From contig JBBIRW010000007.1 in the NCBI GenBank assembly GCA_037441565.1, positions 43,297 to 107,296 of the forward strand: DNA of 64,000 bases, read 5' to 3'. The notes under the pieces are model-generated. The model worked only from the letters and a program-made list of their open reading frames with translations. It was not told the DNA's origin and made no database searches. Positions 32,706-57,708 of this stretch are shown in pieces; positions within the stretch are counted from its first letter, which is position 1, and every line of letters starts with the position of its first letter. The position numbers and the translations under genes are program-made. The DNA is from Deltaproteobacteria bacterium. GTDB taxonomy: Bacteria > Desulfobacterota > JBBIRW01.

Positions 32706-32714
32706 GAGAGGAAT

Positions 32715-33227: not shown

Positions 33228-33239
33228 ACGGAGTGTTAT

Positions 33240-37814: not shown

Positions 37815-38811
37815 CCATTACTTCTTATATCTCTTTATTGGTGGATTTTTTATTGTTGCTGTTGAGTTTTTTGCAGGAATAACAAAGGGTTCACTTCTCT
37901 TCACTCTTTCGTATTGGATTGCCATCACTCATGGCTGCATTGCACTTGTTACAGCAGCTAATATTGCAAAGGCTAAATGGATAACTCCACTAAAGAGATA
38001 CCTTCTTTCCGTTTACCCGTTGCTATTGCTTCACTCAATCCTTTTTCTTTTTGTTACTTATGAGCTGGATATATATCCATGGGTTAAAAGTGAAGGATTA
38101 TGGTTAAACAGGCCATTCTTTATAGCAAGAAACTTCTTCCTGCTCTTTCTTTCCTTTTTATCTGCACGAAAATTCTCCAAGGAATCATTAATTGATAGTG
38201 AAAGAAAAAACATCTATGGCTCAATTTATATCGCATTCTTTGTTGCATCACAATCAATGATTGCATTCGACTGGATAATGTCTCTCGAATATCCCTGGTA
38301 CAGCACACTCTTTGGAGGTTATTTTTTCATTGAATCCATATACTCCGGTATTGCAATTTCAGGGATTGTATGTCTATTTCTTATGAGAAAAACTGGGAGC
38401 CAAATCAGTGAAGACCTGGTCAAGACTTTGAGGGATATTGCTACACTAATTTTCGGGTTCAGCTTACTCTGGGCAGGGCTTTTCTATGCGCAGTTCCTTG
38501 TTATCTGGTATGGAAACATTCCTGAGGAGGTAAGCTTTCTGTTTGTAAGGACTAAATTATCACCTTACCGGGAAATCTCGCTTGTTATACTCCCCTCACT
38601 ATTCTTCTTCCCCTTTCTAACACTCCTTTCAAGAAAGACAAAAACGATCCCATTGATCGTCTCAATTATATCGGTATCGATACTTATGGGTATATTTCTT
38701 GAAAGACTGCTATTCCTCCTTCCATCCGTTAAGCTAAATCCTGTAAAGGTAATCTCTCAATCAATCATTATGGCAGCACTGATTATTCTAACGATCAAGA
38801 GAAATAATTAG
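37777..38811 (+). CDS. actF: Alternative Complex III subunit ActF-like polytopic membrane protein
   Basis: 344 aa, about 9 TM helices, immediately after actD; assigned by position and topology only. Confidence 0.55.
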   Translation: MMEKMMEKGMRINHYFLYLFIGGFFIVAVEFFAGITKGSLLFTLSYWIAITHGCIALVTAANIAKAKWITPLKRYLLSVYPLLLLHSILFLFVTYELDIYPWVKSEGLWLNRPFFIARNFFLLFLSFLSARKFSKESLIDSERKNIYGSIYIAFFVASQSMIAFDWIMSLEYPWYSTLFGGYFFIESIYSGIAISGIVCLFLMRKTGSQISEDLVKTLRDIATLIFGFSLLWAGLFYAQFLVIWYGNIPEEVSFLFVRTKLSPYREISLVILPSLFFFPFLTLLSRKTKTIPLIVSIISVSILMGIFLERLLFLLPSVKLNPVKVISQSIIMAALIILTIKRNN

Positions 38812-42048: not shown

Positions 42049-42108
42049 ATCTATAAAATGGACCTTAAAACCATAAGATCCTGGGCTCTCTTCCTTTTCC
42101 TTTTGTAT

Positions 42109-43611
42109 TTAACCCTTAATGTTTCCAACCGGAATGAATCTCACAACCTTTTTTGAAAGTCCTGCAAGCTCTGTGGTATCGACTACTTCATCTATGTTTT
42201 TGTAAGCAGCACCAGCCTCCTCAGCAAGACCAGAAAAGGACGCCGTTCTTACATAAATACCCGTCTCCTCCATCTTCCTCTGGAGAGCCTTTCCATCAAA
42301 TAGTTTCCTTGCCTTCGTTCTGCTCATTGTCCTTCCACTACCATGTGCTGTTGAAAAGAAACTCTTTGTTCCCGAACCTATCCCCGCAAGTAGATAGCTC
42401 CCCGTCTCCATACTTCCGCCAATAATAACAGGCTGACCTGTTTCCTTATATATACCAGGCAATCCTTCCATTCCAGGAGCAAAGGCTCGTGTAGCTCCCT
42501 TTCTGTGAACAATAAGCTGCATCTCCTTTCCATTAACAAAATGTTTTTCAAGCTTTGCTGTATTGTGTGAAACATCGTAAACCATTTGCATCCCGAGCTT
42601 CCTTGCATCCTCCTTGAATACCTTTTCAAAAACCTCTCTTATTCTATGGGTTATTACCTGTCTGTTTGCAAATGACATATTTATCCCGCACTTCATGGCG
42701 GCGAAATAATCCTGACCTTCAGGGGAATCAAAGGGTGCACAGGCAAGTTCCCTATCCCTCACACTAATTCCATATTTCTTCTCCATAACCTTAAGAAAAA
42801 TTTGAAGATAATCAGTTGCAACCTGATGCCCGAATCCACGACTACCACAGTGAAACATCACTACAACCTGATCAGGTATTGATATACCGAAGATCTTTGC
42901 CAGTCTTTCATCGTATATGTTTTCCGGTTTCGCTATCTGAATCTCAAGATAGTGATTGCCTGATCCAAGGGTTCCAATTTGATTTATGCCCCTTTCAACT
43001 GCCTTCTCACTGATCTTTGATGGATCCGCACCCTGAATACACCCCCCTTCTTCTGTCCTTTCAAGATCCTCCTCCCAGCCAAAACCCTTTCTTACACACC
43101 ACCTTGCCCCTTCAGAAAGGACCTCCATGAATTCATTTCTATTAAGTTTCAGAAATCCGGTGCTTCCCACACCACATGGAACCCTCTCAAATAATAGATC
43201 AACAATCTCCTTGATCCTTGGTTTAATATCATTAAATGTCAGGGAAGTAAGGACAAGCCTCATTCCACAGTTTATATCAAAACCAATACCACCCGGTGAT
43301 ATTACACCTACCTTGGCATCCATTGCAGCAACACCACCGATGGGAAATCCATAGCCGGAATGTGCATCTGGCATGCAGAGGGCGTAATTTACAATACCCG
43401 GAAGTGTTGCTACATTTGTTATCTGTTCAAAGACCTGCCAGTCCATCTCGCTTATCAGCTTCTCTGTTCCATATATCCTGGCTGGAGCTCGCATCCCATC
43501 CTTGAACTCCTCAGGGATCTCATAGATAAAATCGCTTATCCTTCTGAATGGTATCGGATGTGCCATAAAGACCTCCCTCAGTAAATAACTTAAACCCTCA
43601 TATGTGGACAT
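42109..43611 (-). CDS. rtcB: RNA-splicing ligase RtcB
   Basis: 500 aa ORF; conserved RtcB segments (CMPDAHSGYGFPIGGV, HCGSRGFGHQ); start may be the internal ATG near 43566. Confidence 0.85.
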   Translation of the reverse strand: MSTYEGLSYLLREVFMAHPIPFRRISDFIYEIPEEFKDGMRAPARIYGTEKLISEMDWQVFEQITNVATLPGIVNYALCMPDAHSGYGFPIGGVAAMDAKVGVISPGGIGFDINCGMRLVLTSLTFNDIKPRIKEIVDLLFERVPCGVGSTGFLKLNRNEFMEVLSEGARWCVRKGFGWEEDLERTEEGGCIQGADPSKISEKAVERGINQIGTLGSGNHYLEIQIAKPENIYDERLAKIFGISIPDQVVVMFHCGSRGFGHQVATDYLQIFLKVMEKKYGISVRDRELACAPFDSPEGQDYFAAMKCGINMSFANRQVITHRIREVFEKVFKEDARKLGMQMVYDVSHNTAKLEKHFVNGKEMQLIVHRKGATRAFAPGMEGLPGIYKETGQPVIIGGSMETGSYLLAGIGSGTKSFFSTAHGSGRTMSRTKARKLFDGKALQRKMEETGIYVRTASFSGLAEEAGAAYKNIDEVVDTTELAGLSKKVVRFIPVGNIKG

Positions 43612-44692
43612 TCAAGCATCCCTATTTTCTGGTATATTAGTGAGTATGATAGTGATAGATGGAAGCTATGGTGAAGGTGGAGGGCAGATCCTGAGAACCG
43701 CACTCAGTATCTCCTGTATAACAGGAAAACCCTTCAGAATATTTAACATAAGGAAGGGGAGGGAAAAACCAGGCCTCATGCCTCAGCATCTCGCCTCCAT
43801 AATGGCAGCAAGGGAGATCTCTGATGCAGATATTGAAGGAGCTTTCATAGGCTCAACAGAACTGATCTTTTCACCCCGAAGGATAAAGGCAGGAGAGTAC
43901 TCATTTAATATAGGTACCGCTGGATCAACAATACTGCTTCTTCAGACCCTCATACCTCCTCTTATCTTTGCTGGAGATCTATCAAGGATCTTAATAAAGG
44001 GCGGAACGCATGTGCCTTTCAGTCCCATTTACGATTATACGGAGAAAGTGTTTGCAGAGTTCTTAAACATGTTAGGAATCAGGATCAGTTTAAGGATCAG
44101 ATCATACGGCTTCTACCCTAAAGGAGGTGGTTCAATAGAGGCTGAAATATATCCTGTAGAGTCGATCTTACCAATAGAGATTCTCGAGAAGGGGAGGTTA
44201 AAAAGGATCGGAGGCTGTTCATCCGTTGCCAATCTCCCCATATCCATTGCAGAGAGACAGCGCACATCCGCTATTAAATATATGAAAGAAAGACTCGGTG
44301 ATGAAGTTCCCATTCATCTTGAAACTATGAATGTTCCAACCCCATCTGAGGGAACATTTCTATTCCTCAAGTGCGAATTTGATCTTTCTATTGCAGGTTT
44401 CTCTTCCCTTGGAAGGAGGGGAAAGAGTGCGGAAAAGGTCGGTGAGGAAGCTGCCTCAGGGCTGATATCATTTCTCAGAACTGATGGTGCAATTGATCCC
44501 CATCTTGCTGACCAGATAGTTCTCTATCTCTCAATGGCCTCAGCTCCATCCCGATTCACTGTATCCTCCATAACGGATCACCTGTTAACGAATCTCTACA
44601 CAATAAGGCATTTCTTTAAAATTAGATACTCCGTTAATGGAGAAAAGGGAGGAGTTGGCCTGATTGAAATAAATCCTGTTCTTCAAAATTAA
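43604..44692 (+). CDS. rtcA: RNA 3'-terminal phosphate cyclase RtcA
   Basis: 362 aa ORF; RtcA N-terminal motif ([19 protein letters not shown]); start may be the internal ATG near 43646. Confidence 0.8.
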
Positions 44693-45582
44693 AGATCGAT
44701 CAGCATGGAGAGGAATATCAATGAGAGATAAACTATCGAATATCTGAAAAGCGTCCTGTCAATTTTCTTTCCTGACAGTTTCATAAAAAAGATAACAAAA
44801 TATATTACATTGAGAAGAATAGAAACCCAGAGGTAAAATGATCCGCAAAATTCTAAAACGAATGGAAGTATGCTTGCCATTGAAAGAAGAACAAGATAGA
44901 TTAACATTAATTCTGATGTCTTCCTTTCGGATATAGCAGGCATTACAGGTATTCCTGCTTTTATATAATCATCTCTGTAGAGACTTGCAAATGACCAGAA
45001 GTGAAGAGGTTGCCAGATCAGGATAATCAGGAATAAAACAAACGCCTCAGCATCAATACCGTTCTTAACCGCAGCGCATCCTATAAGCGGTGGAAGGGCT
45101 CCCGCAATACCGCCAATCTCAGTAGCATGCGGAGTTTTTCTTTTTAGAAATCTTGTATAGAGAAAATAGTAGATGAATGCACCGATCATGGATAGAAATG
45201 CTGACAGTAAATTCACAAAAATGGATAGAAAAATGAATGATAGAATTATGAGAAGCATGCCGAATTTTGTTGCACTCCTTATATCAATTCTTCCGAGAGG
45301 TATTGGCCTGTTTTTTGTCCTTTCCATAACTGCATCTATATCTGCATCATAGCAGTTGTTTAATATTGTTGAGCCGGAGCAGCAAAGTGCAAGACCGGTT
45401 AATGTCCAGAACAGGAGCGATGTATTTATCGCCCCCTTTGATGCAATCCATATACTGGAAAAGGCTGTAATGAGCATAAGGAGTGTTATGCCAGGACCTG
45501 TTACTGAAATATAGTCCCGGAAAACACCCCTTCCAATGCTTTGAGAAACAATAACCCTACTTCTTAGCCCTTCCGTATTCAT
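44689..45582 (-). CDS. ctaB: protoheme IX farnesyltransferase (heme O synthase, UbiA family)
   Basis: UbiA-type polytopic protein with Asp-rich motif (NCYDADIDAVMERTKNRP); start set at internal ATG 45582 to limit overlap with coxI. Confidence 0.8.
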   Translation of the reverse strand: MNTEGLRSRVIVSQSIGRGVFRDYISVTGPGITLLMLITAFSSIWIASKGAINTSLLFWTLTGLALCCSGSTILNNCYDADIDAVMERTKNRPIPLGRIDIRSATKFGMLLIILSFIFLSIFVNLLSAFLSMIGAFIYYFLYTRFLKRKTPHATEIGGIAGALPPLIGCAAVKNGIDAEAFVLFLIILIWQPLHFWSFASLYRDDYIKAGIPVMPAISERKTSELMLIYLVLLSMASILPFVLEFCGSFYLWVSILLNVIYFVIFFMKLSGKKIDRTLFRYSIVYLSLIFLSMLIDL

Positions 45583-47134
45583 AAGGTCCTGATGTAACAA
45601 CAGGTATCCTTTCGAAATTATAACATGGCGGTGGGGAAGGAATCGTCCATTCAAGCGATAGTGCATTCCATGGATTATCAGACGCCTTTTCCCCCACAAA
45701 CGCTGAACGAACAACATTGAAAACGGAAAGCAGGAAACCAGCTATCAGTATATACCCTCCGATAACTGTTACCCTGAATAGCACAGTAAACTCTGGAGGA
45801 TAGCTCCAGTACCTCCTCGGCATGCCCATGAGTCCCAGCTGGAAAAGGGGTATGAAAGCGAAAAGGGAACCGATCATGATCAGCCAGAATGAAAGCCTTG
45901 CCATGCGCTCATTATACATGCGCCCTGTGAATTTTGGAAACCAGAAATAAATACCCGCAAAAGCCACAGATGTCATGGCAAGTGATAGAACCATATGGAA
46001 ATGGGCAACAACCCAGTATGTATCATGAACATGGAGGTCAATTGCAATAAGCCCATTTCCAACGCCCGTAACACCGCCGATAACAAAAAGACTTATAAAA
46101 CCTATCACATAGAGCATAGGCGCCCTGAATTCTATTGCTCCCCTATGCATCGTTCCAAGCCAGTTGAATACCTTTATACCCGTTGGAACAGCAATGAGTA
46201 TTGTAAGCATCGATTGCATGATCCTTGCCCAATCCTCTACACCTTTTGTGAATAGATGATGAATCCATACGGAAAACCCGAGGATGGTAATTGACATAAT
46301 TGCAATGACCATACTCCTGTATCCAAATATCTTTTTCCTTGAAAAGGTTGATACAATTTCCGATACAATTCCAAATGCAGGAAGCGCAACAACATAAACA
46401 GCAGGGTGTCCGTAAAACCAGAATAGATGCTGATAAAGCATCGGAGATCCACCCATTGAAGGATTATAGAAATTTGTTCCCAAGTATCGATCAAAAAGAA
46501 GGAGTGTTACAGCTCCCGCAAGAACAGGTATTCCAAAAAGCTGAATTATAAAAGCACTGAGCATCCCCCATATAGCGAGATTGAGTCTTCCCCATGTCAT
46601 ACCTGGTGCCCTCATACAGATTATAGTTGTTATAAAGTTCACAGCAGATGCGAGGGCAGATCCACCGAGAAGATGAACGGAGAAAACATAAAGCGAAGTA
46701 TTCGCATCCGTGATTATTGAATACGGTGGATAACCTGTCCAGCCGATATCGATCCTTCCAGGTGTTACGAGTGCAAGAACTGCCATAACCGTTGCACCTG
46801 CAAAAAGCCAGTAGCTCAGGGCATTGAGCCTTGGAAATGCAACATCCTTTGCACCTATCATAAGCGGGATAAGGAGATTGGCAAAGAAACCTGTAAAAAC
46901 TGGAATCATCCACCATAAAATCATTGCTGCTCCATGAATTGTGAAGAATACATTGTATGTTTTTGCACCTATTATATCCATTCCTGGGGACCACTGTTCT
47001 GCCTTAATAAAGATGGCAAGGATAAGTCCGAGCACAAAAGCAGTAAGACTTGTTATAAGATAGAGAACTGCAATCCTTTTATGGTCTGTTGTAAATATCC
47101 ATTCCTTTATACTAAAGCCCTTTTTTTCTGACAT
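45557..47134 (-). CDS. ctaD: cytochrome c oxidase subunit I (second copy)
   Basis: 525 aa; GHPAVYVVALP and WIHHLF motifs; 12 TM. Confidence 0.9.
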   Translation of the reverse strand: MSEKKGFSIKEWIFTTDHKRIAVLYLITSLTAFVLGLILAIFIKAEQWSPGMDIIGAKTYNVFFTIHGAAMILWWMIPVFTGFFANLLIPLMIGAKDVAFPRLNALSYWLFAGATVMAVLALVTPGRIDIGWTGYPPYSIITDANTSLYVFSVHLLGGSALASAVNFITTIICMRAPGMTWGRLNLAIWGMLSAFIIQLFGIPVLAGAVTLLLFDRYLGTNFYNPSMGGSPMLYQHLFWFYGHPAVYVVALPAFGIVSEIVSTFSRKKIFGYRSMVIAIMSITILGFSVWIHHLFTKGVEDWARIMQSMLTILIAVPTGIKVFNWLGTMHRGAIEFRAPMLYVIGFISLFVIGGVTGVGNGLIAIDLHVHDTYWVVAHFHMVLSLAMTSVAFAGIYFWFPKFTGRMYNERMARLSFWLIMIGSLFAFIPLFQLGLMGMPRRYWSYPPEFTVLFRVTVIGGYILIAGFLLSVFNVVRSAFVGEKASDNPWNALSLEWTIPSPPPCYNFERIPVVTSGPYEYGRAKK

Positions 47135-47150
47135 ATAAAATCACCTCCAG

Positions 47151-48926
47151 TTATTTCAGCGATTTAAGATATGCGATTATGGAATATATCTGTCTTTCGG
47201 AAAGCCTGTATGGTGGCATTGCTGCAGGATAACCTTTAACAATCTTCTCTGAGGGATAAAGTATTGAGTGTTCTATATACTCCTCATCAACCTTCATGCT
47301 TCCACCATCCTCGAACCTTGTTTCCCTCCCAAATATTCCTTTAAATGTTGGACCTGTTGATTCCTCCCCCGTAACTGTGTGACATCCCAGACATCCCAGG
47401 ATCTCAACAAGCCTCCTTCCCTCATTGATATCGGGTAAAGCTTCTCCCTCACTCTTCGCCTTTGATATCCATGCATTGAAATCCTCCCTCTTCATTGCTA
47501 TCACCTTTGCAATCATCATAGAATGACCATTTCCGCAGAACTCCGTGCAGAATGCCCTGTATAATCCTGGCTTTTCCGCATTAAACCACAGATACGTTAT
47601 CCTTCCCGGAATTGCTTCCTCCTGAATATGGAAATCTGGAAGGAAAAATCCATGAAGCACATCCCTGCTTGTAAGGCTGATCCTTACAGGAATTCCGGCA
47701 GGAATAACAATCTCATTTACCCCTTTTATTCCTTCAGGGTAGGTAACATTCCATCCCCACATGAACCCCTCGACGCTGATCTCATATGCATTGGATGGAA
47801 CACCTCTGAATTTCTGATAAATACTCCATGTCTGGATCCCTAAGAAAATAACAATCACAAGAGGAATAACAGTCCATATAATTTCAACAAGTGAATTCCC
47901 CTCAATGTAATCCCCTTCTTCCCTTCCTCTTCCCTTTCTGTAACGGATGCAAATATAAATTAACGGAATCGTTACAACTAACCAGACGGCGAACATAAGT
48001 ATAAGATAGATACCGAAGTGCTGATCCCACAGCCTCGATGGATTGCTTGCATCAGATGCGAGTGCATCTTTTCCGGAAATGAAAGTTATGAAAGGGATCA
48101 GTAGCAGTAACTCTGATCTCCTTTTCTTTACATAAATAACAATGGAGAGCAACCCGGTAATAACCCCCATAAAAATTCCAGCTGCAATAAAAAGAAGCGG
48201 AATGTTTATCACATATGTTCGTGATCCTGGATCGTATTTATAGCATGCAAATGTAATCATGCTCGCTATCGAAACACTTCCAGAAATCCCCTTCATTGAT
48301 TCAAGTATTGCTAACCGAACGTTGAATGGATCAGGTTTTGATCCATAAAGATATCTTGTTATCCTTCCTTCGGGAGAGATAAATATGTAAACAGATGGAT
48401 GTACAAACATTCCATCTTGAATTGAATAGAAGAACCGATATCCCGTGCTCTCGACCAGCTTATTTATATTTTCATCTGTCGTTGTTGCAAATTTCCATTG
48501 ATTAAATACTTCTGATCTCTTTTTATTAAAAACTCTTTCATAGAATTCTAATGCTTTTGATGGTGTATCCTTGCTGTTAAAGCTCAAAATAAGAACATGG
48601 TAATCTTTTCCATTTTTTAAATCCCTTATCTCATTCAATGCATCAAAAAGTCCCTCAACAAGAAGCGGGCAGATATGTGGACAATCATAATAAACAAGCG
48701 TAAGGATCAGGACTTTGCCCTTGAATTGCGAAATAGAAAATTCTTTCCTGCTTTTATCCGTAAAAGTTATTTCTGCAACGGATCTTCCGAGATGTTTTTC
48801 TTCTTCTATCTTTAAAATCGCCGGATTGAAATCCGAGGTTGATATAGTAGGAATCTTTGCCTCTAAATCAGCATTAAATGAAAGTATAAAGAAGATCAAA
48901 ATAACCAATCTTCCAATCGATACCAT
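47151..48926 (-). CDS. SCO1/SenC domain fused to cytochrome c oxidase subunit II with C-terminal cytochrome c domain
   Basis: 591-aa single frame: signal peptide, SCO1-like thioredoxin domain (CPHICP, YDPGSRTYV + TM), two CoxII TM helices, cupredoxin domain with CuA site (FCTEFCGNGHSMM), C-terminal heme c motif CLGCH. Confidence 0.8.
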   Translation of the reverse strand: MVSIGRLVILIFFILSFNADLEAKIPTISTSDFNPAILKIEEEKHLGRSVAEITFTDKSRKEFSISQFKGKVLILTLVYYDCPHICPLLVEGLFDALNEIRDLKNGKDYHVLILSFNSKDTPSKALEFYERVFNKKRSEVFNQWKFATTTDENINKLVESTGYRFFYSIQDGMFVHPSVYIFISPEGRITRYLYGSKPDPFNVRLAILESMKGISGSVSIASMITFACYKYDPGSRTYVINIPLLFIAAGIFMGVITGLLSIVIYVKKRRSELLLLIPFITFISGKDALASDASNPSRLWDQHFGIYLILMFAVWLVVTIPLIYICIRYRKGRGREEGDYIEGNSLVEIIWTVIPLVIVIFLGIQTWSIYQKFRGVPSNAYEISVEGFMWGWNVTYPEGIKGVNEIVIPAGIPVRISLTSRDVLHGFFLPDFHIQEEAIPGRITYLWFNAEKPGLYRAFCTEFCGNGHSMMIAKVIAMKREDFNAWISKAKSEGEALPDINEGRRLVEILGCLGCHTVTGEESTGPTFKGIFGRETRFEDGGSMKVDEEYIEHSILYPSEKIVKGYPAAMPPYRLSERQIYSIIAYLKSLK

Positions 48927-48939
48927 TTTTTCCTCCTCA

Positions 48940-49683
48940 TCAAGCTTTTAGAAAGCTATACGGGAGGATATAAACCAATGAAAGAATGAGAAGCCATAGA
49001 CCATCAACAAAATGCCAGTAGTATCCGCAAATCCTTACAACACTTCTACGAATTCCTCCAGCTCCTTTTCTAATTGAAAGAAGCAGAATATAAAGCTGAA
49101 ACAAAACACCCACAAGAACATGGGAGCCGTGAAGACCTGTTATCAGATAAAAATATGTTCCGTAGGAGTTACTTGTAATAGTTAATCCTTCAGATATAAG
49201 CCTGCTCCATTCCCTTGCCTGTCCCATAAGAAAAAGAAGGCCAAGCACAATTGTCAAGGAAAGCCATTGCTTCATGTATTTCCTTTCAGCCATCTGAATT
49301 GTTACACTCGAGGAAATAAGAATGACTGTCAGGATCATTGCAAAACCAAGTGGTGGAATGTCTGCTGGTATTCCTGGAGATATCCATTCCCCTTTGGGAA
49401 GCATGCTGTATAAGTATGCGCTTAAAACTCCGCTAAAGAGTGCGATCTCAGATAGGATAAAAACCACCATTGCCGTAGTGCTGATCCTTTCTTCTGAATC
49501 CGATTCGAATACCTCGGATACCCATCCTGTGAGGCTTATGATTGTGCCCGCAGCACCCAGACAGGCTGTAAAAAGGCCTCCGACAGGAATCTTCCACTGA
49601 AATGAGATCATAAAACCCATCATGATGAGGAATGATGAAAAAGCTGTAAAAAATGGCCAGATGCTTACAAATTGAGTATGCAT
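48940..49683 (-). CDS. ctaE: cytochrome c oxidase subunit III (second copy)
   Basis: 247 aa polytopic protein; subunit-III C-terminal pattern (GLHGSHVLVGV, YYWHFVDGLWLL). Confidence 0.75.
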   Translation of the reverse strand: MHTQFVSIWPFFTAFSSFLIMMGFMISFQWKIPVGGLFTACLGAAGTIISLTGWVSEVFESDSEERISTTAMVVFILSEIALFSGVLSAYLYSMLPKGEWISPGIPADIPPLGFAMILTVILISSSVTIQMAERKYMKQWLSLTIVLGLLFLMGQAREWSRLISEGLTITSNSYGTYFYLITGLHGSHVLVGVLFQLYILLLSIRKGAGGIRRSVVRICGYYWHFVDGLWLLILSLVYILPYSFLKA

Positions 49684-49736
49684 CCTTCACCCCCATAAAA
49701 TGGGATAATATTTGTCCAGTTTAAACACAAAAATTT

Positions 49737-50138
49737 TTATATTCTATTAGAAAGCATTTTGAAGTTTATCCTGCTAAGTCTTCCTTCCATTTCCTTCCTC
49801 ATTTCAACCCATACTGGATGAACAGAACAGCTGTTGCTAAGAGTGCACAATCTTTTGTTGATAGCACACCTGTTAAATGCAACGGGGCCATCTATTGCCT
49901 GGATTACATCCAGAAGATTTATCTCCTCCAGCCTTCTTGCCAGCTGAAAACCCCCCTTTATGCCACGGTATGATCTCACCAGCCCTACCCTTGTAAGTTT
50001 TTGCAGAATCTTTGAAAGAAAATCCCTGGGGATCCTTTTCGCCCTTGCAATCTCCTTCGCCATTGTTATCTTTCCCTCATTCTCAGCAAGGTATAACACA
50101 CATCTGATAGCGTAATCTGCCTGCCTTGTAATCTGCAT
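49737..50138 (-). CDS. Rrf2-family transcriptional regulator (IscR/NsrR-like, three conserved Cys)
   Basis: wHTH N-terminus (ADYAIRCVLYLA) and Cys triad (CAINKRLCTLSNSC); start moved to ATG 50138 because the track start at 50150 is a TTG. Confidence 0.8.
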   Translation of the reverse strand: MQITRQADYAIRCVLYLAENEGKITMAKEIARAKRIPRDFLSKILQKLTRVGLVRSYRGIKGGFQLARRLEEINLLDVIQAIDGPVAFNRCAINKRLCTLSNSCSVHPVWVEMRKEMEGRLSRINFKMLSNRI

Positions 50139-50325
50139 AATACAGGACAAAATTTATCCTCTTTTGATCAATTATGTCAAGAAAATTATTTTTTAAGGAT
50201 GCCTCCTAATTAACCGGGTAATTTCTGTAGGTTAAAAATAAAGGGATGGGCTAATTTTTTTTACCCCCTGGAAGTAAAAATTTTATATAATAAAAGATGG
50301 CAGATGGAAAGGAAAGGATCCTTCC

Positions 50326-50886
50326 ATGGTAGAGATAAGATTTCATGGGAGAGGGGGACAGGGTGCGGTCACCAGCGCGGAACTACTTGCACTTGCTGCC
50401 ATTGAAGAAGGAAAATTTGCACAGGCCATACCAAGTTTTGGTCCTGAAAGGAGAGGCGCTCCTGTTGCTGCATATGTAAGGATAAGCAGAAACAGGATAA
50501 AATATAGATTCGGGATTTACAATCCCGATATAGTCGTTGTTCTTGATCCAAGCCTTTTAGGTCTTCCTATTGTCAAATCAGGCCTTAAAGAGGATGGTGT
50601 CCTCGTTGTCAACACTCATGAATCGGAAGATGAGGTCAGGGAAAGTATTAAGTATGATGGCACGCTTGCCATTGTTGATGCCTCTTCTATTGCAATAAAG
50701 ACCCTTGGAATCCCTGTCACCAATACCTGTATGCTTGGGGCGCTTCTGAAAGCCTCAGAAGTTGTTTCCCTTGAATCCTTTTTTAACCCTATGAAACAGA
50801 AGTTCAAAGGGGCAGCGGAGAAAAATCTCGATGCAATGAAACAGTCCTATAATGAAACAATAATTTTTAAAAAGAGGCTCTTATGA
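50326..50886 (+). CDS. porG: pyruvate/2-oxoacid:ferredoxin oxidoreductase gamma subunit
   Basis: 186 aa; typical gamma N-terminus (IRFHGRGGQGAVTSAELLA). Confidence 0.85.
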   Translation: MVEIRFHGRGGQGAVTSAELLALAAIEEGKFAQAIPSFGPERRGAPVAAYVRISRNRIKYRFGIYNPDIVVVLDPSLLGLPIVKSGLKEDGVLVVNTHESEDEVRESIKYDGTLAIVDASSIAIKTLGIPVTNTCMLGALLKASEVVSLESFFNPMKQKFKGAAEKNLDAMKQSYNETIIFKKRLL

Positions 50887-51179
50887 AATTTAAACCTGCT
50901 CATGAATTAGGATGGAAGGAACTTAAGCCGGGATATATAATAGATGATCCCGGCAATTCAATTCATTATAAAACGGGAAGCTGGAGATCGCGCCTTCCTG
51001 TCTGGGATTACTCCCGATGCATCAAATGTGGTATATGTTACATTTTCTGTCCTGACAACGCTGTTATCCAGAGATCAGATAGATACTTTGAAGTTGATCT
51101 CGATTTCTGCAAAGGTTGCGGAATCTGTGCCAGAGAATGCTACACCCAATGTATAACAATGAAAGAGGAAAGGGTTTAG
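50883..51179 (+). CDS. porD: pyruvate/2-oxoacid:ferredoxin oxidoreductase delta subunit (2x[4Fe-4S])
   Basis: 98 aa; two ferredoxin motifs (CIKCGICYIFCP, CKGCGICARECY); 4-nt overlap with porG. Confidence 0.85.
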   Translation: MKFKPAHELGWKELKPGYIIDDPGNSIHYKTGSWRSRLPVWDYSRCIKCGICYIFCPDNAVIQRSDRYFEVDLDFCKGCGICARECYTQCITMKEERV

Positions 51180-51181
51180 AT

Positions 51182-52357
51182 ATGGGAAAGGTTGTCGGGA
51201 TGGAGATAAGTATTGCTGCTGCTGAGGCTGTAAAGCAGTGCAATGTGGATGTTATCTCAGCATATCCTATAACCCCCCAAACACATATAGTTGAAAAATT
51301 AAGTGAATTTGTAGCAAATGGTGAGCTTGATGCAGAATTTATACCGGTTGAGAGCGAACATAGTGCATTGAGTGTTTGTGTTGGTTCATCTGCATGTGGG
51401 GCAAGGACATTTACCTGCACAAGTTCTCAAGGCCTCATTTTGATGAGTGAAATCGTCTATATAACCTCTGCAATGAGGCTTCCGGTTTTTATGATCCTTG
51501 CAAACAGATCCCTTTCTGCACCTCTTTCCATATGGGTTGATCATTCTGATGTTATGTCAATAAGGGATTGTGGATGGATTCAGGTCTTTGCAGCCAATGG
51601 TCAGGAGGTTTACGATCATGTATTTCATGCATTCAAAGTAAGCGAAAATGAATCTGTTCTTCTTCCATATATACTCAACATAGATGGATTCATACTCACC
51701 CATGTTGTTGAACCGATAGAACTCATTGATCAGGAAATTGTAGATAAATATCTTCCTCCATTTAATCCACCATACAGGCTTGATCCTGATAGACCATTAA
51801 CGATGGGTGCTTATGGTGTTCCTGAAGTTTATATGGAATCAAAGATGGCACAGGACATGGCATTGAAAAATGCTTTTCCTTATATCATTAATGCATGGAA
51901 AGAATTCGGAGACCTCACTGGAAGATACTATAATCCCGTTGAAACATATAGATCTGAAGATGCAGACATACTTCTTGTGACAATGGGTTCTATGGGTGAA
52001 ACAGCAGAGGTTGCTGTTGATGAATTAAGGGAAGACAATATTGCTGCAGGTATTGTGAAAATAAGGCTATGGAGGCCATTCCCTTACGAGGATTTTATAA
52101 ACAAGGTATCAAGGGCGCAGATCCTTGTTGTTGTTGACAGATCACTTTCCTATGGAGGACCTGGTGGTCCAGTGGCATCAGAAATAAGGGGTGCACTCTA
52201 CCACCTTGATAAGAGACCATATGTTATGAATTTTATTGCCGGTCTTGGGGGAAGGGACATCACGATTAATGATTTCAAAGAAATGATCGATCATGCAATC
52301 AAAAATGCACATAAATCAAGGCAGGAAGATTATATTTTATTTGGGACAAGGGAGTGA
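51182..52357 (+). CDS. porA: pyruvate/2-oxoacid:ferredoxin oxidoreductase alpha subunit
   Basis: Start at internal ATG 51182 (MGKVVGMEISIAAAEAV); conserved alpha motifs (ISAYPITPQT). Confidence 0.85.
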   Translation: MGKVVGMEISIAAAEAVKQCNVDVISAYPITPQTHIVEKLSEFVANGELDAEFIPVESEHSALSVCVGSSACGARTFTCTSSQGLILMSEIVYITSAMRLPVFMILANRSLSAPLSIWVDHSDVMSIRDCGWIQVFAANGQEVYDHVFHAFKVSENESVLLPYILNIDGFILTHVVEPIELIDQEIVDKYLPPFNPPYRLDPDRPLTMGAYGVPEVYMESKMAQDMALKNAFPYIINAWKEFGDLTGRYYNPVETYRSEDADILLVTMGSMGETAEVAVDELREDNIAAGIVKIRLWRPFPYEDFINKVSRAQILVVVDRSLSYGGPGGPVASEIRGALYHLDKRPYVMNFIAGLGGRDITINDFKEMIDHAIKNAHKSRQEDYILFGTRE

Positions 52358-52364
52358 AACAAAA

Positions 52365-53303
52365 ATGATAAATTATACTGTATATGTTCCAAACCTCTTA
52401 ACAAAAAAAGAATACTTCGCTGCAGGACATAGAGCATGCCAGGGATGTGGCCTTGCTCTTGCTGTGCGCTACACAATGAAAGCTGCTGGTGAGAATGTTA
52501 TTGTTGCAAATGCAACTGGATGTCTTGAAATCATATCAACCCCTATCCCTTACACATCATGGTGCGTTCCCTGGATACATGTTGCCTTTGAAAATGCAGC
52601 AGCTGTTATATCAGGTGTTGAGGCTGCTTATAAGGTGATGGAAAGAAAAGGAAGAATAAAAAAGAGAAAGATATATTTCCTTACCCTTGCAGGAGACGGA
52701 GGAACAACGGATATAGGTCTTCAGGCACTGAGTGGTGCGATGGAGAGGTTTCACAATTTTACCTATATCTGCTTCGATAATGAGGCATACATGAATACGG
52801 GAATTCAGAGATCAGGCTCAACCCCATTTGGTGCACATACAACAACATCACCTGCTGGAAGTGTAAAACGCGGTCAGAGCACCTGGAAAAAGGATATGCC
52901 GGCAATATGCGTTGCTCACAATATTCCTTATGTTGCAACAGCAAACATCAGTTATCCCTTTGATCTTATGGAAAAGATTAAAAAGGCACTTGAAACAGAG
53001 GGCCCATCATATGTTCATGTGCTTTCTGTTTGCCCAACTGGATGGGGACATCCTCCTGATGATACCATTAAAATTGGAAGGCTTGCAACAGAAACAGGTA
53101 TATTTCCACTCTATGAAGTAGTAAATGGGAGATATAGATTAACAATTGATTTTCCGGATCTCAAGCCTGTTGAAGAATATCTCCATGCACAGGCAAGATT
53201 CAAACATCTCAGGGATGAGGAAATAAGATATATTCAGGAGAGGGTTCATAAGGAATATAAAAAATTAAGAAGACTTCAGGAAATAACACAAAAGATGGAA
53301 TAA
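52365..53303 (+). CDS. porB: pyruvate/2-oxoacid:ferredoxin oxidoreductase beta subunit (TPP-binding)
   Basis: Start at internal ATG 52365 (MINYTVYVP); Cys ligands CQGCG and TPP-binding GDGG motif. Confidence 0.85.
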   Translation: MINYTVYVPNLLTKKEYFAAGHRACQGCGLALAVRYTMKAAGENVIVANATGCLEIISTPIPYTSWCVPWIHVAFENAAAVISGVEAAYKVMERKGRIKKRKIYFLTLAGDGGTTDIGLQALSGAMERFHNFTYICFDNEAYMNTGIQRSGSTPFGAHTTTSPAGSVKRGQSTWKKDMPAICVAHNIPYVATANISYPFDLMEKIKKALETEGPSYVHVLSVCPTGWGHPPDDTIKIGRLATETGIFPLYEVVNGRYRLTIDFPDLKPVEEYLHAQARFKHLRDEEIRYIQERVHKEYKKLRRLQEITQKME

Positions 53304-53307
53304 GAAT

Positions 53308-53781
53308 ATGATCAAGCTTACAAATATCAGGGGAAAGGTTGACAGAATTATTGACATTTATAACGGCGACAGGGGTCAGATCGTTTCAATCCTTCAGGAT
53401 ATTCAGGAAGAATATCTTTATCTTCCCAGAAAAGCACTTGAGTATATAAGTGAAAGATTAAACATTCCACTTTCTCAGCTATACAGTGTGGCAACTTTTT
53501 ATCGGGCAATGAGGCTAAAGCCCCGGGGAAGATATCTCATACGTGTTTGTCTCGGAACAGCATGTCATATAAGGGGTGGTCCATTAATACTGGAGAGAAT
53601 CGAGAGGGAGCTCGGCATTAAGGCTGGAGATACAAGCAGTGATATGAAATTTACCGTTGAAACAGTAAACTGTGTTGGAGCCTGTGCCCTTGGTCCTATA
53701 GTAATCTGCAATGACGAACTACGCTCTCATATGACAACAGTAAAGGCATTATCACTTATAAAAAAGCTCAAGAAGGATTGA
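53308..53781 (+). CDS. NuoE/HoxE-like [2Fe-2S] thioredoxin-like subunit
   Basis: 157 aa; two Cys pairs (CLGTACH, CVGACALGP) in the NuoE arrangement. Confidence 0.8.
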   Translation: MIKLTNIRGKVDRIIDIYNGDRGQIVSILQDIQEEYLYLPRKALEYISERLNIPLSQLYSVATFYRAMRLKPRGRYLIRVCLGTACHIRGGPLILERIERELGIKAGDTSSDMKFTVETVNCVGACALGPIVICNDELRSHMTTVKALSLIKKLKKD

Positions 53782-53784
53782 AAT

Positions 53785-55635
53785 ATGGAAAAGATAATAA
53801 AAACTCCTGATGATCTCGAAAGGAGAAGGAAAAAACTCCTGGAAGAGAGGCAACCTTCCAGAAAATGGATTGCAGTGCCCTGCGGAACATGCGGACTTGC
53901 AAATAGATCTGACCAGATACTTGAGGGATTGAAAACCTATATCAAAAAGGCGAAAGTTGATGTTGAAGTTAAGAAAACCGGATGTCAGGGGCTCTGCGAA
54001 TCACTTCCAAAGATAATCATCCATCCGGAAAAGATATTCTATCAGCATGTAAAACCATCTGATATCAAGAATATTGTTGAAGAAACATTGAAGAAAAACT
54101 CCTTGGTGGAGGAGCTCCTGTTCAGGGATCCTGGAACGGGTAATACCATCGTAAAATTTGACGATATCCCTATTATGAAAAAGCAACACAGGCTCCTCCT
54201 ATCCTATCACGAATGGATAGATCCTGAAGATATAGATGATTATATCGCATTATCCGGATATACATCCCTTGCAAAAGTTCTCTTTACCATGAAACCGGAT
54301 GAAGTTATCGAGATAATAAAGAAATCAGGATTGCGCGGAAGAGGAGGAGCAGGATTTCCAACAGGGATCAAATGGGAATCATGCAGAAAGGCGACGGGCG
54401 ACATAAAATATGTAATCTGTAACGCTGATGAAGGTGATCCCGGTGCATACATGGACAGGGCATTACTCGAGGGAAATCCACATCTTGTTATAGAAGGGAT
54501 GATCATAGGAGCCTATGCAATAGGTGCACAGCAAGGCTATGTTTATGTAAGGTGGGAATATCCTCTGGCTTTGAAGAATCTTATTAAAGCTATAAATAGC
54601 GCCAGGGAATACGGGCTTCTTGGTAAAAACATACTTGGAAGCGGTTTTGATTTTGATATAGGAGTAAACAGAGGTGGAGGTGCATTTGTTTGTGGTGAAT
54701 CAACTGCACTTATGGCATCAATGGAAGGAAAGCCAGGAGAGCCAAGGGCAAAATATATTCATACCGTTGAAAAGGGGCTCTACAATAGACCAACAACACT
54801 CAACAATGTTGAGACATGGGCGAATGTCCCGATAATAATAGAAAGGGGTCTTGAATACTACACCTCAATCGGCAATGAAAATAATAAGGGAACAAAGATC
54901 TTTTCGCTTGCCGGCAAAGTCAACTATACAGGTCTTATCGAGGTCCCCCTTGGAATAAAACTGAGAGATATCATATTTGATATTGGCGGTGGAATAAAGG
55001 AAAATAGAAAATTTAAGGCAGTTCAGACAGGAGGCCCTCTCGGCGGTATCCTTGGAGAGAAGCATCTCGATCTTCCTGTTGATTTTGACAGTTTAAGCAA
55101 GGTTGGTTCAATGATGGGAAGCGGAGGAATGATTGTAATGGATGAAACAAACTGTATGGTTGATGTCGCAAAGTACTTCCTTAGATTCCTTGAGGAGGAA
55201 TCATGTGGAAAGTGCGTTCCTTGCAGGGAAGGAGTCAGGAGAATGAGAGAAGTTCTTGATGAAATCTCATCAGGGCGAGGGAACGATGCATATATTCAGC
55301 TTCTTGAGGAGATGGGAAGTGCAATCATGGATGGAAGTCTCTGTGCTCTGGGCGGTTCTGCACCCAATCCTGTTATGACAACAATAAAATATTTTCCCGA
55401 AGAATACCATTCACATATTTACAACAGAAAATGTCCTGCAGGTGTTTGCAAAGATCTCATTACATACTCTATCGATCCCGATAAATGCAACGGATGTGCT
55501 GCCTGCATTCCCGTATGTCCTGAAAAATGTATAACTGGGGTGAAGAACAAACCCCATATCCTTGATCCTGTTAACTGCATAAAGTGTGGATCCTGTTATG
55601 ATGTATGTAGATATGATGCTGTTCTCAGGCATTAG
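53785..55635 (+). CDS. NuoF/HoxF-like NAD(P)H-binding FMN flavoprotein with extra FeS domains
   Basis: 616 aa; N-terminal thioredoxin-like Cys domain, FMN/NADH motif GRGGAGFPTGIKWE, cluster motif ESCGKCVPCREG, C-terminal 2x[4Fe-4S] ferredoxin (CNGCAACIPVCP, CIKCGSCYDVC). Confidence 0.85.
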   Translation: MEKIIKTPDDLERRRKKLLEERQPSRKWIAVPCGTCGLANRSDQILEGLKTYIKKAKVDVEVKKTGCQGLCESLPKIIIHPEKIFYQHVKPSDIKNIVEETLKKNSLVEELLFRDPGTGNTIVKFDDIPIMKKQHRLLLSYHEWIDPEDIDDYIALSGYTSLAKVLFTMKPDEVIEIIKKSGLRGRGGAGFPTGIKWESCRKATGDIKYVICNADEGDPGAYMDRALLEGNPHLVIEGMIIGAYAIGAQQGYVYVRWEYPLALKNLIKAINSAREYGLLGKNILGSGFDFDIGVNRGGGAFVCGESTALMASMEGKPGEPRAKYIHTVEKGLYNRPTTLNNVETWANVPIIIERGLEYYTSIGNENNKGTKIFSLAGKVNYTGLIEVPLGIKLRDIIFDIGGGIKENRKFKAVQTGGPLGGILGEKHLDLPVDFDSLSKVGSMMGSGGMIVMDETNCMVDVAKYFLRFLEEESCGKCVPCREGVRRMREVLDEISSGRGNDAYIQLLEEMGSAIMDGSLCALGGSAPNPVMTTIKYFPEEYHSHIYNRKCPAGVCKDLITYSIDPDKCNGCAACIPVCPEKCITGVKNKPHILDPVNCIKCGSCYDVCRYDAVLRH

Positions 55636-55650
55636 GAGAAGGAGATTGGC

Positions 55651-56370
55651 ATGTCTGATGGAAAAACAGTAACTTTAACAATAGATGGAAAGACGATAAG
55701 ATCAAGGGAAGGAATGTATGTTCTTGAAGTTGCAAGGGAGAACAATATTCAAATTCCAACACTTTGCTATCATGAATCATTAGCACCATCCGGCTCATGC
55801 AGACTCTGTGTTGTTGAGGCAAAACGCGATAATTCATCAAGGATTGTTGCATCATGTCTTTATCCTGTTTCAGATGGTCTCGAAATATTAACAAATAGTG
55901 AAAGAGTTCTGGCCGTAAGAAAGCTTGTTGTAGAACTCCTTTATGCAAGATGCCCGAATGTTCCGTTTGTAAAAAATCTTGCAAATGAGTTTGGAATAAA
56001 GGAACCAAGGTTTGCAAAGGAGAATGATGACTGCATACTGTGCGGCCTCTGCGTTCGCGCATGCGATGAAATCGTGGGTGTTAAGGCTATCTCTATGGTA
56101 AGCAGAGGGGCAAAAAAAGAGGTAAACACACCCTTTGGAACCGCATCGGATGTATGCATAGGTTGTGCAACGTGCGCATATATATGTCCTACAAAGAGAA
56201 TAAAGGTTGAGGAGAAGGATGGATACAGGAAGATCTGGTATAAGAAATTTAAAATTGTCAATTGCAGGAAGTGCGGATTTCCCATAGGTCCGAAAGAACA
56301 GCTTTCTTACTTTATTAAAATTGCCAAACTACCTGATAATTTTTACGACCTTTGTCCGAGCTGCAGGTGA
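55651..56370 (+). CDS. HoxU / NuoG-N-terminal-like FeS subunit ([2Fe-2S] + [4Fe-4S])
   Basis: 239 aa; plant-type 2Fe-2S pattern (CYH...CRLC...C), then CILCGLCVRAC and CIGCATCAYICP; no molybdopterin domain. Confidence 0.75.
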   Translation: MSDGKTVTLTIDGKTIRSREGMYVLEVARENNIQIPTLCYHESLAPSGSCRLCVVEAKRDNSSRIVASCLYPVSDGLEILTNSERVLAVRKLVVELLYARCPNVPFVKNLANEFGIKEPRFAKENDDCILCGLCVRACDEIVGVKAISMVSRGAKKEVNTPFGTASDVCIGCATCAYICPTKRIKVEEKDGYRKIWYKKFKIVNCRKCGFPIGPKEQLSYFIKIAKLPDNFYDLCPSCR

Positions 56371-56888
56371 CGTAAATACCATATGAGAAAGGCATGATAT
56401 ATGAAATTTTTCTTTGAGACAGAATCAGCGAAGGCATCTTCTTCCTCAAAAGGAAGCGAGTCAAAATTCCTCAATAGATAAGCAGAAAAGACCCCACTTC
56501 CCGATCCCACCATATCACCATTTCTGTTGTAAATAGCCACATTCCTAAGCCCACAACTTGGCGATTTACTCTTAAGTATAAATCCGCAAATACCCATACT
56601 CTCAAGCTCCTTAGACTTCCCTATCATATATTTCCGAAAAATATCACTTAAATCCCTATTTTCACGGATAGTTATAATCCTTATACCACCTCTTCCTTTT
56701 ACAAGATGAATAGGCTCCCTCGGCACACCCAAACCTGCTTCCTCTTCGGGACAGAAAGGAATCCATCTGAATATTTTTCCAAGAACTTCAACTATGAAGG
56801 GGTTATACCTGTGTGTTCCATCATATCTAACCCTGTTCCCAAGCAAACATGAAGAGATGGCAATTGGGATCAAAATATTCTTTTTCAT
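56343..56888 (-). CDS. DUF523-family protein (TudS-like)
   Basis: 181 aa; N-terminal ISSCLLGNRVRYDG pattern typical of DUF523. Confidence 0.55.
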   Translation of the reverse strand: MKKNILIPIAISSCLLGNRVRYDGTHRYNPFIVEVLGKIFRWIPFCPEEEAGLGVPREPIHLVKGRGGIRIITIRENRDLSDIFRKYMIGKSKELESMGICGFILKSKSPSCGLRNVAIYNRNGDMVGSGSGVFSAYLLRNFDSLPFEEEDAFADSVSKKNFIYHAFLIWYLRHLQLGQRS

Positions 56889-56913
56889 ATATTAATAGGA
56901 TTTCCGTCGGTAA

Positions 56914-57708
56914 TTATTCTCCGATCTTCGGTATTGTTCCCCTCTCAAGCGCGTTCCTCCAGCTCTGATAAAAAATTCTAAGGGAAATTAAAATGTAGAT
57001 CCCATTCAACACCGCAGCAGTAAGCATCAGCTTAAATGGGAATGGAGATCCGTTTATCACAATCCTCATCGCTTCAAATGAATAGGAAGAAGGGATAATC
57101 ATTGCAATAACCCTTAAAAATCCTGGAAGTGTATCCACAGGGTAAAAGACAGCTGAAAAAGGCATAAAAAGAAAAGCAAGCGCCCATGCAAGCACCTCTG
57201 CCTCCTGACCAAATCTCAGTATAAGAGAAACCGTTATGATACCTATTGACCAACCCATAGCAACAAGGTTTACCGTTAAGGGAAGGAGTGATAATCCCAT
57301 TTTAAATATATTAAAAGAGTAAAGTATGCCTGCTATGAAGGACATCATAAAGAAGGCAATAATAACTTTCAAGACACTGACGAGTATAAGTCCAAGGAGA
57401 TATTCACTAATTGTCAGGGGAGATATGAAGACATTAACAAGATTCCTCGCCCATATGTCTTCAAGGAAGGAGAGCGATATTCCCTGCTGGGCCCTGAAAA
57501 GGATGTCCCAGAGTATAAGTGCACCAAGGAAAAATGAAACAAAAGGAGGCAGTTCCTTTGAGCTCCTTAAAAGATAAACAGTAACAAAACCCCAGAGAAG
57601 TATATCAATTGCAGGCCAGTAGAAAACCTCGAGTATCCTTGCAAAACTCCTTCTGTAAAGGAATGCCTGTCTGATAACCACTGCACCAACCCTTTTAAAA
57701 TTCATCAT
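56914..57708 (-). CDS. ABC-2-type transporter permease
   Basis: Six-TM permease; start set at internal ATG about 57708 (MMNFKRVGA), small overlap with the ATPase gene. Confidence 0.7.
   Translation of the reverse strand: MMNFKRVGAVVIRQAFLYRRSFARILEVFYWPAIDILLWGFVTVYLLRSSKELPPFVSFFLGALILWDILFRAQQGISLSFLEDIWARNLVNVFISPLTISEYLLGLILVSVLKVIIAFFMMSFIAGILYSFNIFKMGLSLLPLTVNLVAMGWSIGIITVSLILRFGQEAEVLAWALAFLFMPFSAVFYPVDTLPGFLRVIAMIIPSSYSFEAMRIVINGSPFPFKLMLTAAVLNGIYILISLRIFYQSWRNALERGTIPKIGE

Follow-up and report, generated by a model that had tools for sequence, protein, structure and literature searches.

Seven adjacent genes at positions 50326-56370 of a 64-kb stretch of a Deltaproteobacteria genome (contig JBBIRW010000007.1, positions 43,297 to 107,296; hereafter the window) probably encode a single heptameric enzyme of the Por-Bfu type (Type 2 Bfu), in which pyruvate oxidation would be coupled to the reduction of both NAD+ and ferredoxin. 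Four of them, porG, porD, porA and porB, code for a pyruvate:ferredoxin oxidoreductase (POR), and the other three, bfuC, bfuB and bfuA, for a flavoprotein module that belongs to the electron-bifurcating HydABC/Bfu family. Such an arrangement has been described before. "Por-Bfu ABCDEFG", with four POR subunits plus BfuABC, was published in 2022 as a predicted, uncharacterised Type 2 member of the Bfu family (Schut et al. 2022, PMC9304861), and the hypothesis was mentioned again in 2025; the window holds a divergent example of it. An earlier note on this DNA had proposed either a pyruvate:NAD(P)+ oxidoreductase or a ferredoxin- and NAD-linked bifurcating module coupled to POR. The core of that proposal stands and coincides with the published hypothesis, but the function remains a prediction from sequence.

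All seven genes lie on the plus strand. The earlier note had listed a por operon followed, after a 4-nt gap, by NuoE-, NuoF- and HoxU-like genes, and the open reading frame (ORF) listing together with Pfam recovered each of them in place, the gap between porB and the NuoE-like gene included. The gamma subunit gene porG (50326..50886, 186 aa; Pfam POR, 4.8e-41) overlaps by 4 nt with porD (50883..51179, 98 aa), which encodes the delta subunit with two Fer4 domains for 2x[4Fe-4S]. The alpha subunit is encoded by porA (51182..52357, 391 aa; POR_N 1.4e-71, PFOR_II 1.5e-26), and the beta subunit, with its thiamine pyrophosphate (TPP) site and proximal [4Fe-4S] cluster, by porB (52365..53303, 312 aa; TPP_enzyme_C). 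Then follow the HydC/NuoE-like bfuC with the C1 [2Fe-2S] site (53308..53781, 157 aa; 2Fe-2S_thioredx, PF01257, 3.2e-46), the HydB-like bfuB (53785..55635, 616 aa; Complex1_51K 8e-45, NADH_4Fe-4S 1e-30, two C-terminal Fer4 domains and an N-terminal 4-Cys domain) and the HoxU-like bfuA, a short form similar to WorA (55651..56370, 239 aa; Fer2_4 plus a 4Fe-4S dicluster). The intergenic gaps across the block are, in order, -4, 2, 7, 4, 3 and 15 nt, and a purine-rich, Shine-Dalgarno-like stretch precedes each of the seven starts. Mechanically the porA ORF opens at 51116 with a TTG; the start at 51182, an ATG, agrees with homologues and with the gene call on the sister contig. The seven ORFs are real genes, because a relative (L082) with 84-92% identical proteins keeps all of them, as well as the wider neighbourhood.

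The family of the flavoprotein module was assigned from its nearest solved relatives. Along almost its entire length BfuB matched eight solved chains of bifurcating enzymes (BfuB/HydB/NfnB/WorB), with 642-734 bits. The best was WorB 9mqx_B (734 bits, 1e-219), followed by HydB 8a6t_B (724 bits), the HydB of the NiFe enzyme 7t2r_B (719 bits) and NfnB 9n5u_B (691 bits), and the T. maritima HydB 7p5h_B reached 642 bits. Non-bifurcating homologues scored at most 405 bits (405 bits for FdsB; 362 bits and 4e-107 for NuoF). For BfuC, the closest solved relative was HydC 8a6t_C (8e-46). BfuA gave a full-length match to WorA 9mqx_A (6e-47; residues 7-239 against 5-234 of 247), with all cysteines aligned. 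Among the NCBIfam equivalog models, HoxE (130.9 bits, cut-off 224), HoxU (129.3 bits, cut-off 333) and NuoF (TIGR01959; 479.4 bits, cut-off 558.65) all stayed below their thresholds. Because the nearest solved relatives are WorABC, HydABC and NfnABC, and the Hox and Nuo models remain under cut-off, the three proteins are BfuC, BfuB and BfuA of the bifurcating family, formerly HydABC and defined as BfuABC by Schut et al. 2022 (PMC9304861), and not as Hox or Nuo subunits. The label "HoxEFU-like", given to the module earlier, thus held for the shared folds but not for the family.

The NuoF-like protein had been described with an extra N-terminal Cys domain and a C-terminal 2x[4Fe-4S] domain, of the type found in bifurcating enzymes. 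Pfam and the alignment agreed on both domains, and the scores above together with the ligands place BfuB with the bifurcating type. The ligands were tabulated from an alignment of 84 sequences (the window, 80 related loci and the PDB chains 9mqx_B, 7t2r_B and 8a6t_B). The FMN/NAD(H) site is recognizable by GRGGAGF at residue 185 and CNADEGDPGA at residue 212. The cysteines for the [4Fe-4S] cluster B1 (C474/477/480/520) and those for B3 and B4, in two CX2CX2CX3C motifs (C568/571/574/578 and C598/601/604/608), occupy columns that are 100% Cys. The Cys3His site B2 is also present (C457, H544, C550, C555). Nearly every Bfu B subunit has this histidine, which non-bifurcating homologues lack, and a fifth cysteine, which gives a [2Fe-2S] cluster at B2 of the NiFe enzyme (C476), is replaced in the zinc enzymes (Xiao et al. 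2025, PMC12018979). Since S495 stands at the position of this fifth cysteine, we predict a tetra-coordinate, Zn-type B2 in the window. BfuC carries the C1 [2Fe-2S] ligands C81/86/122/126 in its thioredoxin-like C-terminal domain. All ligand sets of the BfuBC core, including the Bfu-specific histidine, therefore appear to be in place.

The B5 site, in BfuB's thioredoxin-like domain at the N terminus, deviates from its homologues. It has four cysteines (C33, C36, C67, C71), the first pair of which reads PCGTCG (residues 32-37, 53878..53895, plus strand), while the consensus is CxGTGC. The consensus Cys columns, occupied by Cys in 88% and 94% of the 84 sequences, hold P32 and G37 in the window, so that the pair forms a CxxC with each cysteine one residue inward of the usual CxxxxC. 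The relative L082, with an 88% identical BfuB, has an identical PCGTCG. We consequently read the shift as a fixed lineage trait and not as an error. In known enzymes B5 holds either [2Fe-2S] or Zn.

BfuA has the ligands for the [2Fe-2S] cluster A1 (C39/50/53/69) and two 4-Cys motifs, at 128-138 and 169-179, for the [4Fe-4S] clusters A2 and A4. A single cysteine (C101) stands at the place of the His-ligated A3; there is no A3, no A5 and no catalytic domain. A C-terminal CxxC...CxxC zinc finger (C205/208/235/238) is followed by one last residue (239), without a terminal helix. Published Por-Bfu BfuA sequences likewise have neither A3 nor A5 (PMC9304861). The WorA homologue of Por-Bfu was described as having the zinc finger and no WorS-docking C-terminal helix (Feng et al. 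2025, PMC12318220), and the window protein agrees with this description residue for residue. With A1, A2, A4 and a zinc finger, and no catalytic domain of its own, BfuA therefore needs an external partner to donate electrons.

The adjacent POR is a candidate for this partner. We found the complete four-subunit signature, with alpha, beta, gamma and delta subunits, the TPP motif, the proximal-cluster cysteines and an 8-Cys delta subunit. PorG passed the NCBIfam model TIGR02175 PorC_KorC (215 bits, cut-off 81.1) and PorD passed TIGR02179 PorD_KorD (96.4, cut-off 60.05). The eight cysteines of PorD lie in two CxxCxxCxxxC motifs (46/49/52/56 and 76/79/82/86). PorB has a GDG-x26-NE motif at residue 110 and Cys 25/28/53/223, and it passed NF008819 "pyruvate synthase subunit PorB" (427.7, cut-off 405). 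Models for 2-oxoisovalerate enzymes scored lower. Because of these two results pyruvate is the favoured candidate substrate.

If the seven proteins form one complex, a continuous path for electrons can be proposed. PorAB with PorG would decarboxylate pyruvate on TPP to acetyl-CoA and CO2, and the electrons would pass from the PorB [4Fe-4S] cluster over the two PorD clusters to A4, A2 and A1 of BfuA, and from BfuA to BfuB, where they would reach B1 and FMN. The FMN/B1/C1 site would then split the electrons of two pyruvate oxidations. A hydride would go to NAD+, and two low-potential electrons would move via the mobile BfuC cluster to B3/B4 and on to ferredoxin. The overall and reversible reaction would be 2 pyruvate + 2 CoA + NAD+ + 2 Fd(ox) -> 2 acetyl-CoA + 2 CO2 + NADH + 2 Fd(red). 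We infer the physical complex and the bifurcation from gene order and ligand conservation, and the electron path, the tight coupling, the pyruvate substrate and the use of NAD rather than NADP are proposed in the same sense. For the direction in vivo, an oxidative one would be favoured, because the NDH-2, alternative complex III, two haem-copper oxidases and ADP-forming acetyl-CoA synthetase encoded in the window would use NADH and acetyl-CoA.

No catalytic subunit of a hydrogenase or formate dehydrogenase was detected, either in the window, which has 68 ORFs of 120 aa or more, 48 of which were scanned against Pfam, or among the gene calls for the 10 kb beyond the cluster on an 82.8-kb contig of the source (Logan SRR11582170). 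Within the same scope there was no hoxYH and no other nuo gene. The only molybdopterin protein of the scan, at 33240-36056, was ActB of alternative complex III. The next gene after bfuA is convergent and belongs to PF04463 (56343-56888; DUF523, now 2-thiouracil desulfurase). The 3' ends of the two genes overlap by 28 nt (56343-56370), as they do in L082. The earlier statement that no hydrogenase or formate dehydrogenase follows the cluster, and that DUF523 does, was correct.

Conservation of the block in relatives, proposed before as a check, was seen beyond L082. Species-representative genomes supplied 80 BfuB loci for comparison, those nearest to the window, at 54-62% identity. Por genes adjoin bfuCBA in 20 of them, and 18 of these 20 have a BfuA of ~240 aa that aligns through the zinc finger. 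The hosts of por-bfu included Dehalococcoidia, Syntrophus, Desulfobacterales, other Thermodesulfobacteriota, SAR324 and UBP1. The 2022 catalogue contained 12 Por-Bfu sequences in BfuB clades 35, 44 and 45, from Chloroflexi and Proteobacteria, and reported that the seven genes are co-expressed in Dehalococcoides mccartyi 195, with pyruvate synthesis as the proposed role in Dehalococcoides (PMC9304861). A literature search for the D. mccartyi locus tags gave nothing. Looked at from the side of BfuA, 20 loci have the zinc-finger form at full length and sufficient DNA upstream, and all of them adjoin a low-potential oxidoreductase. In 18 this is POR, in L049 a tungsten aldehyde oxidoreductase and in L045 a further 2-oxoacid oxidoreductase. 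The latter (L045 5143-10589; 26-31% identical to PorA and PorG) lies directly upstream of bfuCBA, with a poly-ferredoxin downstream, and may represent an OFOR-Bfu with another substrate.

Gene order varied between the por-linked loci. In L006 (UBP1; 5051-11168) porG comes after bfuA, which places the bfu genes within the por set. L052 (1969-8056) has the order bfuCBA-porGDAB and a BfuA that aligns only to residue 191. In L094 (2670-8726; an archaeon, judged by a neighbouring CetZ) and L095 (2864-8729) porG and porD are fused, and in L086, L094 and L095 the block has unrelated surroundings. In L090 (4955-8643; also in L091 and L092) porGDAB is followed by a 641-aa protein in which the C-terminal [4Fe-4S] domain of NuoF is fused to a GltD-like flavoprotein (Fer4_20, Pyr_redox_2) and then by a 235-aa zinc-finger BfuA-like protein, without BfuB or BfuC. 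This cluster probably encodes a different, non-bifurcating pyruvate:NAD(P)+ oxidoreductase on the same adaptor subunit. We found no description of it in the literature examined. Because the short BfuA stays with POR even when the NAD(P) module changes, these loci argue for its role as a POR adaptor. Together, the downstream porG of L006, the porG-porD fusions and the zinc-finger A subunit staying with POR give modest support to a single enzyme.

In a neighbour-joining tree of 84 BfuB sequences, the Por-linked sequences fell into at least three groups, and the window BfuB formed a long orphan branch. Because Por-Bfu was polyphyletic already in the published BfuB tree (PMC9304861), this position does not contradict a link to Por. 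The placement of the NuoF-like protein was of two kinds: by score it belongs among the bifurcating HydB, WorB and NfnB, but in the tree it did not join the Por-linked groups. A CALGGSAPNP motif shared with the D. mccartyi BfuB was considered as a signature of the link to Por and rejected; it occurred in non-Por loci and was absent from most Por loci. The idea that the window POR belongs to a dedicated Bfu-specific clade was also dropped, since a PorA-based metagenome scan gave seven loci, one of which (L088, 59% PorA identity) is a stand-alone POR without Bfu genes.

Several observations weigh against one bifurcating Por-Bfu enzyme. PorA did not reach the cut-off of its top NCBIfam model (PorA_Arch, 482.5 of 550 bits), which makes another 2-oxoacid possible, and the existence of a POR of equal identity without Bfu genes (L088) means that the window POR has no obvious specialisation. 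In the bootstraps of the tree, the sister group of the window BfuB was all-Por in 7/100 and without any Por in 78/100. The shifted B5 site may hold zinc or nothing. In L097 (1-11362) a BfuA 55% identical to that of the window (P0009) stands in a non-POR cluster. Its neighbours there are the large subunit of a NiFe hydrogenase, HycI, MTHFR, bfuC-bfuB twice in succession and an Fdh-like molybdopterin protein; this type of BfuA is not exclusive to POR. Pyruvate, at about -500 mV, can reduce NAD+ and ferredoxin uncoupled, and Schut et al. questioned the need for bifurcation (PMC9304861). Our literature search found neither a biochemical study nor a purification of any Por-Bfu.

Some of these points would suit two separate, co-transcribed enzymes, an ordinary POR reducing free ferredoxin and a stand-alone BfuABC that works as a ferredoxin:NAD+ oxidoreductase, or for an unlinked partner, and balances the ferredoxin and NADH pools. 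The POR subunits do look ordinary, as L088 illustrates, the window BfuB is not nested in the Por-linked clades, and adjacency of genes alone cannot prove a complex. However, a BfuABC without a catalytic A site would be down to two substrates, and still it retains A1-A2-A4, the wire through which WorABCSL takes up electrons from the partner. The position of porG downstream of bfuA in L006, the zinc-finger A subunit that remains with POR after BfuBC is exchanged for another flavoprotein (L090-L092), and the intact block in several phyla and different neighbourhoods also speak for a joint enzyme. We therefore consider two independent enzymes unlikely. An enzyme of another kind is a distinctly improbable alternative: one complex without bifurcation, a pyruvate:NAD+ oxidoreductase that would be an anaerobic functional analogue of pyruvate dehydrogenase, sending all electrons to NAD+ and leaving B3/B4 unused for ferredoxin. 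Precedents are PadEFGHI, whose models hit the por subunits under cut-off, and the POR/GltD-like variant of L090-L092; the reductions of NAD+ and ferredoxin are both exergonic from pyruvate, and NDH-2 and the oxidases of the host would consume the NADH. What argues for bifurcation is that BfuB keeps every separating feature (the B3/B4 ferredoxin domain, the Cys3His B2 and the N-terminal domain), and that Wor-Bfu, the one analogue with a low-potential donor to have been characterised, reduced neither acceptor without the other (PMC9304861).

BfuABC could also serve as diaphorase for a hydrogenase or formate dehydrogenase whose genes lie in another part of the genome, the position after por being incidental. 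The same short BfuA type occurs with the genes of membrane-bound NiFe hydrogenases (Mbh-Bfu, PMC9304861) and, in L097, beside a NiFe hydrogenase, MTHFR and an Fdh-like protein, and the sequence at hand covers only ~83 kb of the genome. In all such cases, however, the partner genes adjoin bfuCBA, and here it is POR that adjoins them, an adjacency kept in L082; the scanned ORFs of the window and the downstream region contained no such catalytic gene. We regard this explanation as highly improbable. The single Por-Bfu enzyme remains the reading that we prefer.

Upstream of the por genes we found a divergent Rrf2-family transcription regulator (49737..50138, minus strand, 133 aa; Pfam Rrf2, 5.8e-36), and beyond it a cox III-II-I operon. 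The divergent position of the regulator and the order cox-Rrf2-por-bfu are kept in L082. An alignment of the Rrf2-porG intergenic region (50140-50325) with that of L082 showed two conserved blocks with diverged sequence between them. The first lies at the Rrf2 start (about 50140-50192). The second surrounds AAATTTTATATAATA (50279-50293), which is invariant and has diverging flanks. It contains a TATAAT-like hexamer (50286..50291, plus strand), 34 nt upstream of the porG ATG, which is a candidate -10 element of porG. Control of the por-bfu cluster by the Rrf2 regulator is possible, judged by its position. A promoter/terminator scan of 49600-57200 gave counts no higher than in shuffles (18 vs 21.5 and 7 vs 6.0) and is evidence for an operon in neither direction; it revealed no terminator-like site at the porB/bfuC junction.

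The regions 25650-38811 and 44689-49683 encode NDH-2, two haem-copper oxidase operons, an alternative complex III (ActA-ActD recognizable) and haem O synthase. In one of the oxidase operons CoxII is fused to SCO1 and a cytochrome c. Also present there were genes for an Fe/Mn superoxide dismutase, ferritin and hemerythrin, and the Por-Bfu enzyme type is otherwise known from strict anaerobes. COX1 (45557-47134) was 62-65% identical to proteins of Candidatus Magnetoovum, Magnetominusculus, Magnetomonas and a "Nitrospirae bacterium", and its nearest named relatives are magnetotactic Nitrospirota. By this one protein the host would probably belong to Nitrospirota, a phylum absent from the 2022 list of Por-Bfu hosts.

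At 10099-15628, on the minus strand, there were genes for a 160-aa poly-[4Fe-4S] protein, a 601-aa tungsten-type aldehyde:ferredoxin oxidoreductase (AFOR_N/AFOR_C, 2.8e-158), a 415-aa FAD/NAD(P) oxidoreductase (Pyr_redox_2 plus Rubredoxin_C) and then a 663-aa ADP-forming acetyl-CoA synthetase. By its gene sizes this region was suspected to be a second Bfu cluster; it turned out to encode an AorABC-like, NAD-linked aldehyde oxidoreductase together with the acetyl-CoA synthetase. The window thus has two ferredoxin-type oxidoreductases, each with its own NAD(P) module (AorABC-like and Por-Bfu). An RNA-repair cluster at 40735-44692 comprised a 437-aa fusion of a CobW/HypB-type GTPase with archease, RtcB (500 aa) and, in divergent orientation, the RNA 3'-phosphate cyclase RtcA.

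If the complex exists, pyruvate would have, next to pyruvate dehydrogenase and POR, a third way to acetyl-CoA, one that yields NADH and reduced ferredoxin together. Why an enzyme should bifurcate electrons from a donor already low enough in potential for both acceptors is a puzzle that the window does not answer. What the window adds is a divergent Por-Bfu example, a host with genes for oxygen respiration and a naturally occurring variant of B5, a site under debate. Useful leads for the characterisation of Por-Bfu are the shifted motif, the aerobic setting and the variation in gene order. One could go further and see in Por-Bfu the main pyruvate-oxidising enzyme of a microaerobic respiration, co-regulated with the adjacent aa3-type oxidase through the Rrf2 redox sensor and supplying NDH-2, alternative complex III and the oxidases with NADH. 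The CxxC at B5 would then exchange [2Fe-2S] for zinc, as in Thermococcus NfnB, or retune the cluster, and the enzyme would amount to a minimal "flavobicluster" Por-Bfu of natural origin, built on a BfuB lineage that was recruited independently, and not a gluconeogenic or syntrophic device of an anaerobe. This wider picture is speculative, and as a whole we think it quite doubtful.

Among the known systems, HoxEFU and NuoEFG share the ancestry of the NuoE-like, NuoF-like and NuoG-N-terminal-like folds and the NAD(H)/FMN chemistry with the window module, but they do not have the extra N- and C-terminal FeS domains of BfuB or its Cys3His site. The HydABC [FeFe]-hydrogenases (8A6T, 7Q4V, 7P5H) are closer. 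They have the same BfuB/BfuC core (724, 687 and 642 bits for BfuB) with the same ligands for FMN, B1, B3, B4 and C1 and, apart from the shifted first pair, for B5, and HydC is the top match of BfuC; unlike in these enzymes, the window BfuA has no H-cluster domain, A3 or A5, and there is no hydrogenase function. PadEFGHI, the NADH-dependent phenylglyoxylate dehydrogenase (NF045762-NF045766), also connects catalytic subunits of the 2-oxoacid:ferredoxin type with an NAD(P)-reducing flavoprotein of its own. Its NAD(P) module, however, is unrelated to BfuBC and non-bifurcating, and the Pad models scored well under their cut-offs on the por subunits of the window. The pyruvate:NADP+ oxidoreductase of Euglena, a PFOR-CPR fusion, likewise joins catalysis of the 2-oxoacid:ferredoxin type to a dedicated NAD(P) flavoprotein that is unrelated to BfuBC and non-bifurcating.

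The best solved relative of both BfuB and BfuA is WorABCSL, the tungsten aldehyde oxidoreductase of Acetomicrobium mobile (PDB 9MQX). In both systems a low-potential oxidoreductase would feed an A4-A2-A1 wire leading to the BfuBC core, and both have a Zn-type B2, in the window by prediction. The partner in the window is POR and not WorSL, and its BfuA has no C-terminal alpha-helix adaptor of the kind that docks WorS and builds the nanowire; docking to PorD must therefore use another way. The closest system as a whole is Por-Bfu itself, with the same seven products, a short BfuA with A1, A2 and A4, and tight packing on one strand. The window differs from it in its host, which has aerobic respiratory genes and is probably a Nitrospirota instead of one of the Chloroflexi or syntrophic Proteobacteria, in a BfuB that is at most 62% identical to that of any species-representative genome and lies outside the Por-linked groups of the neighbour-joining tree, and in the CxxC instead of CxxxxC at the first pair of B5, the reference being itself a bioinformatic prediction.

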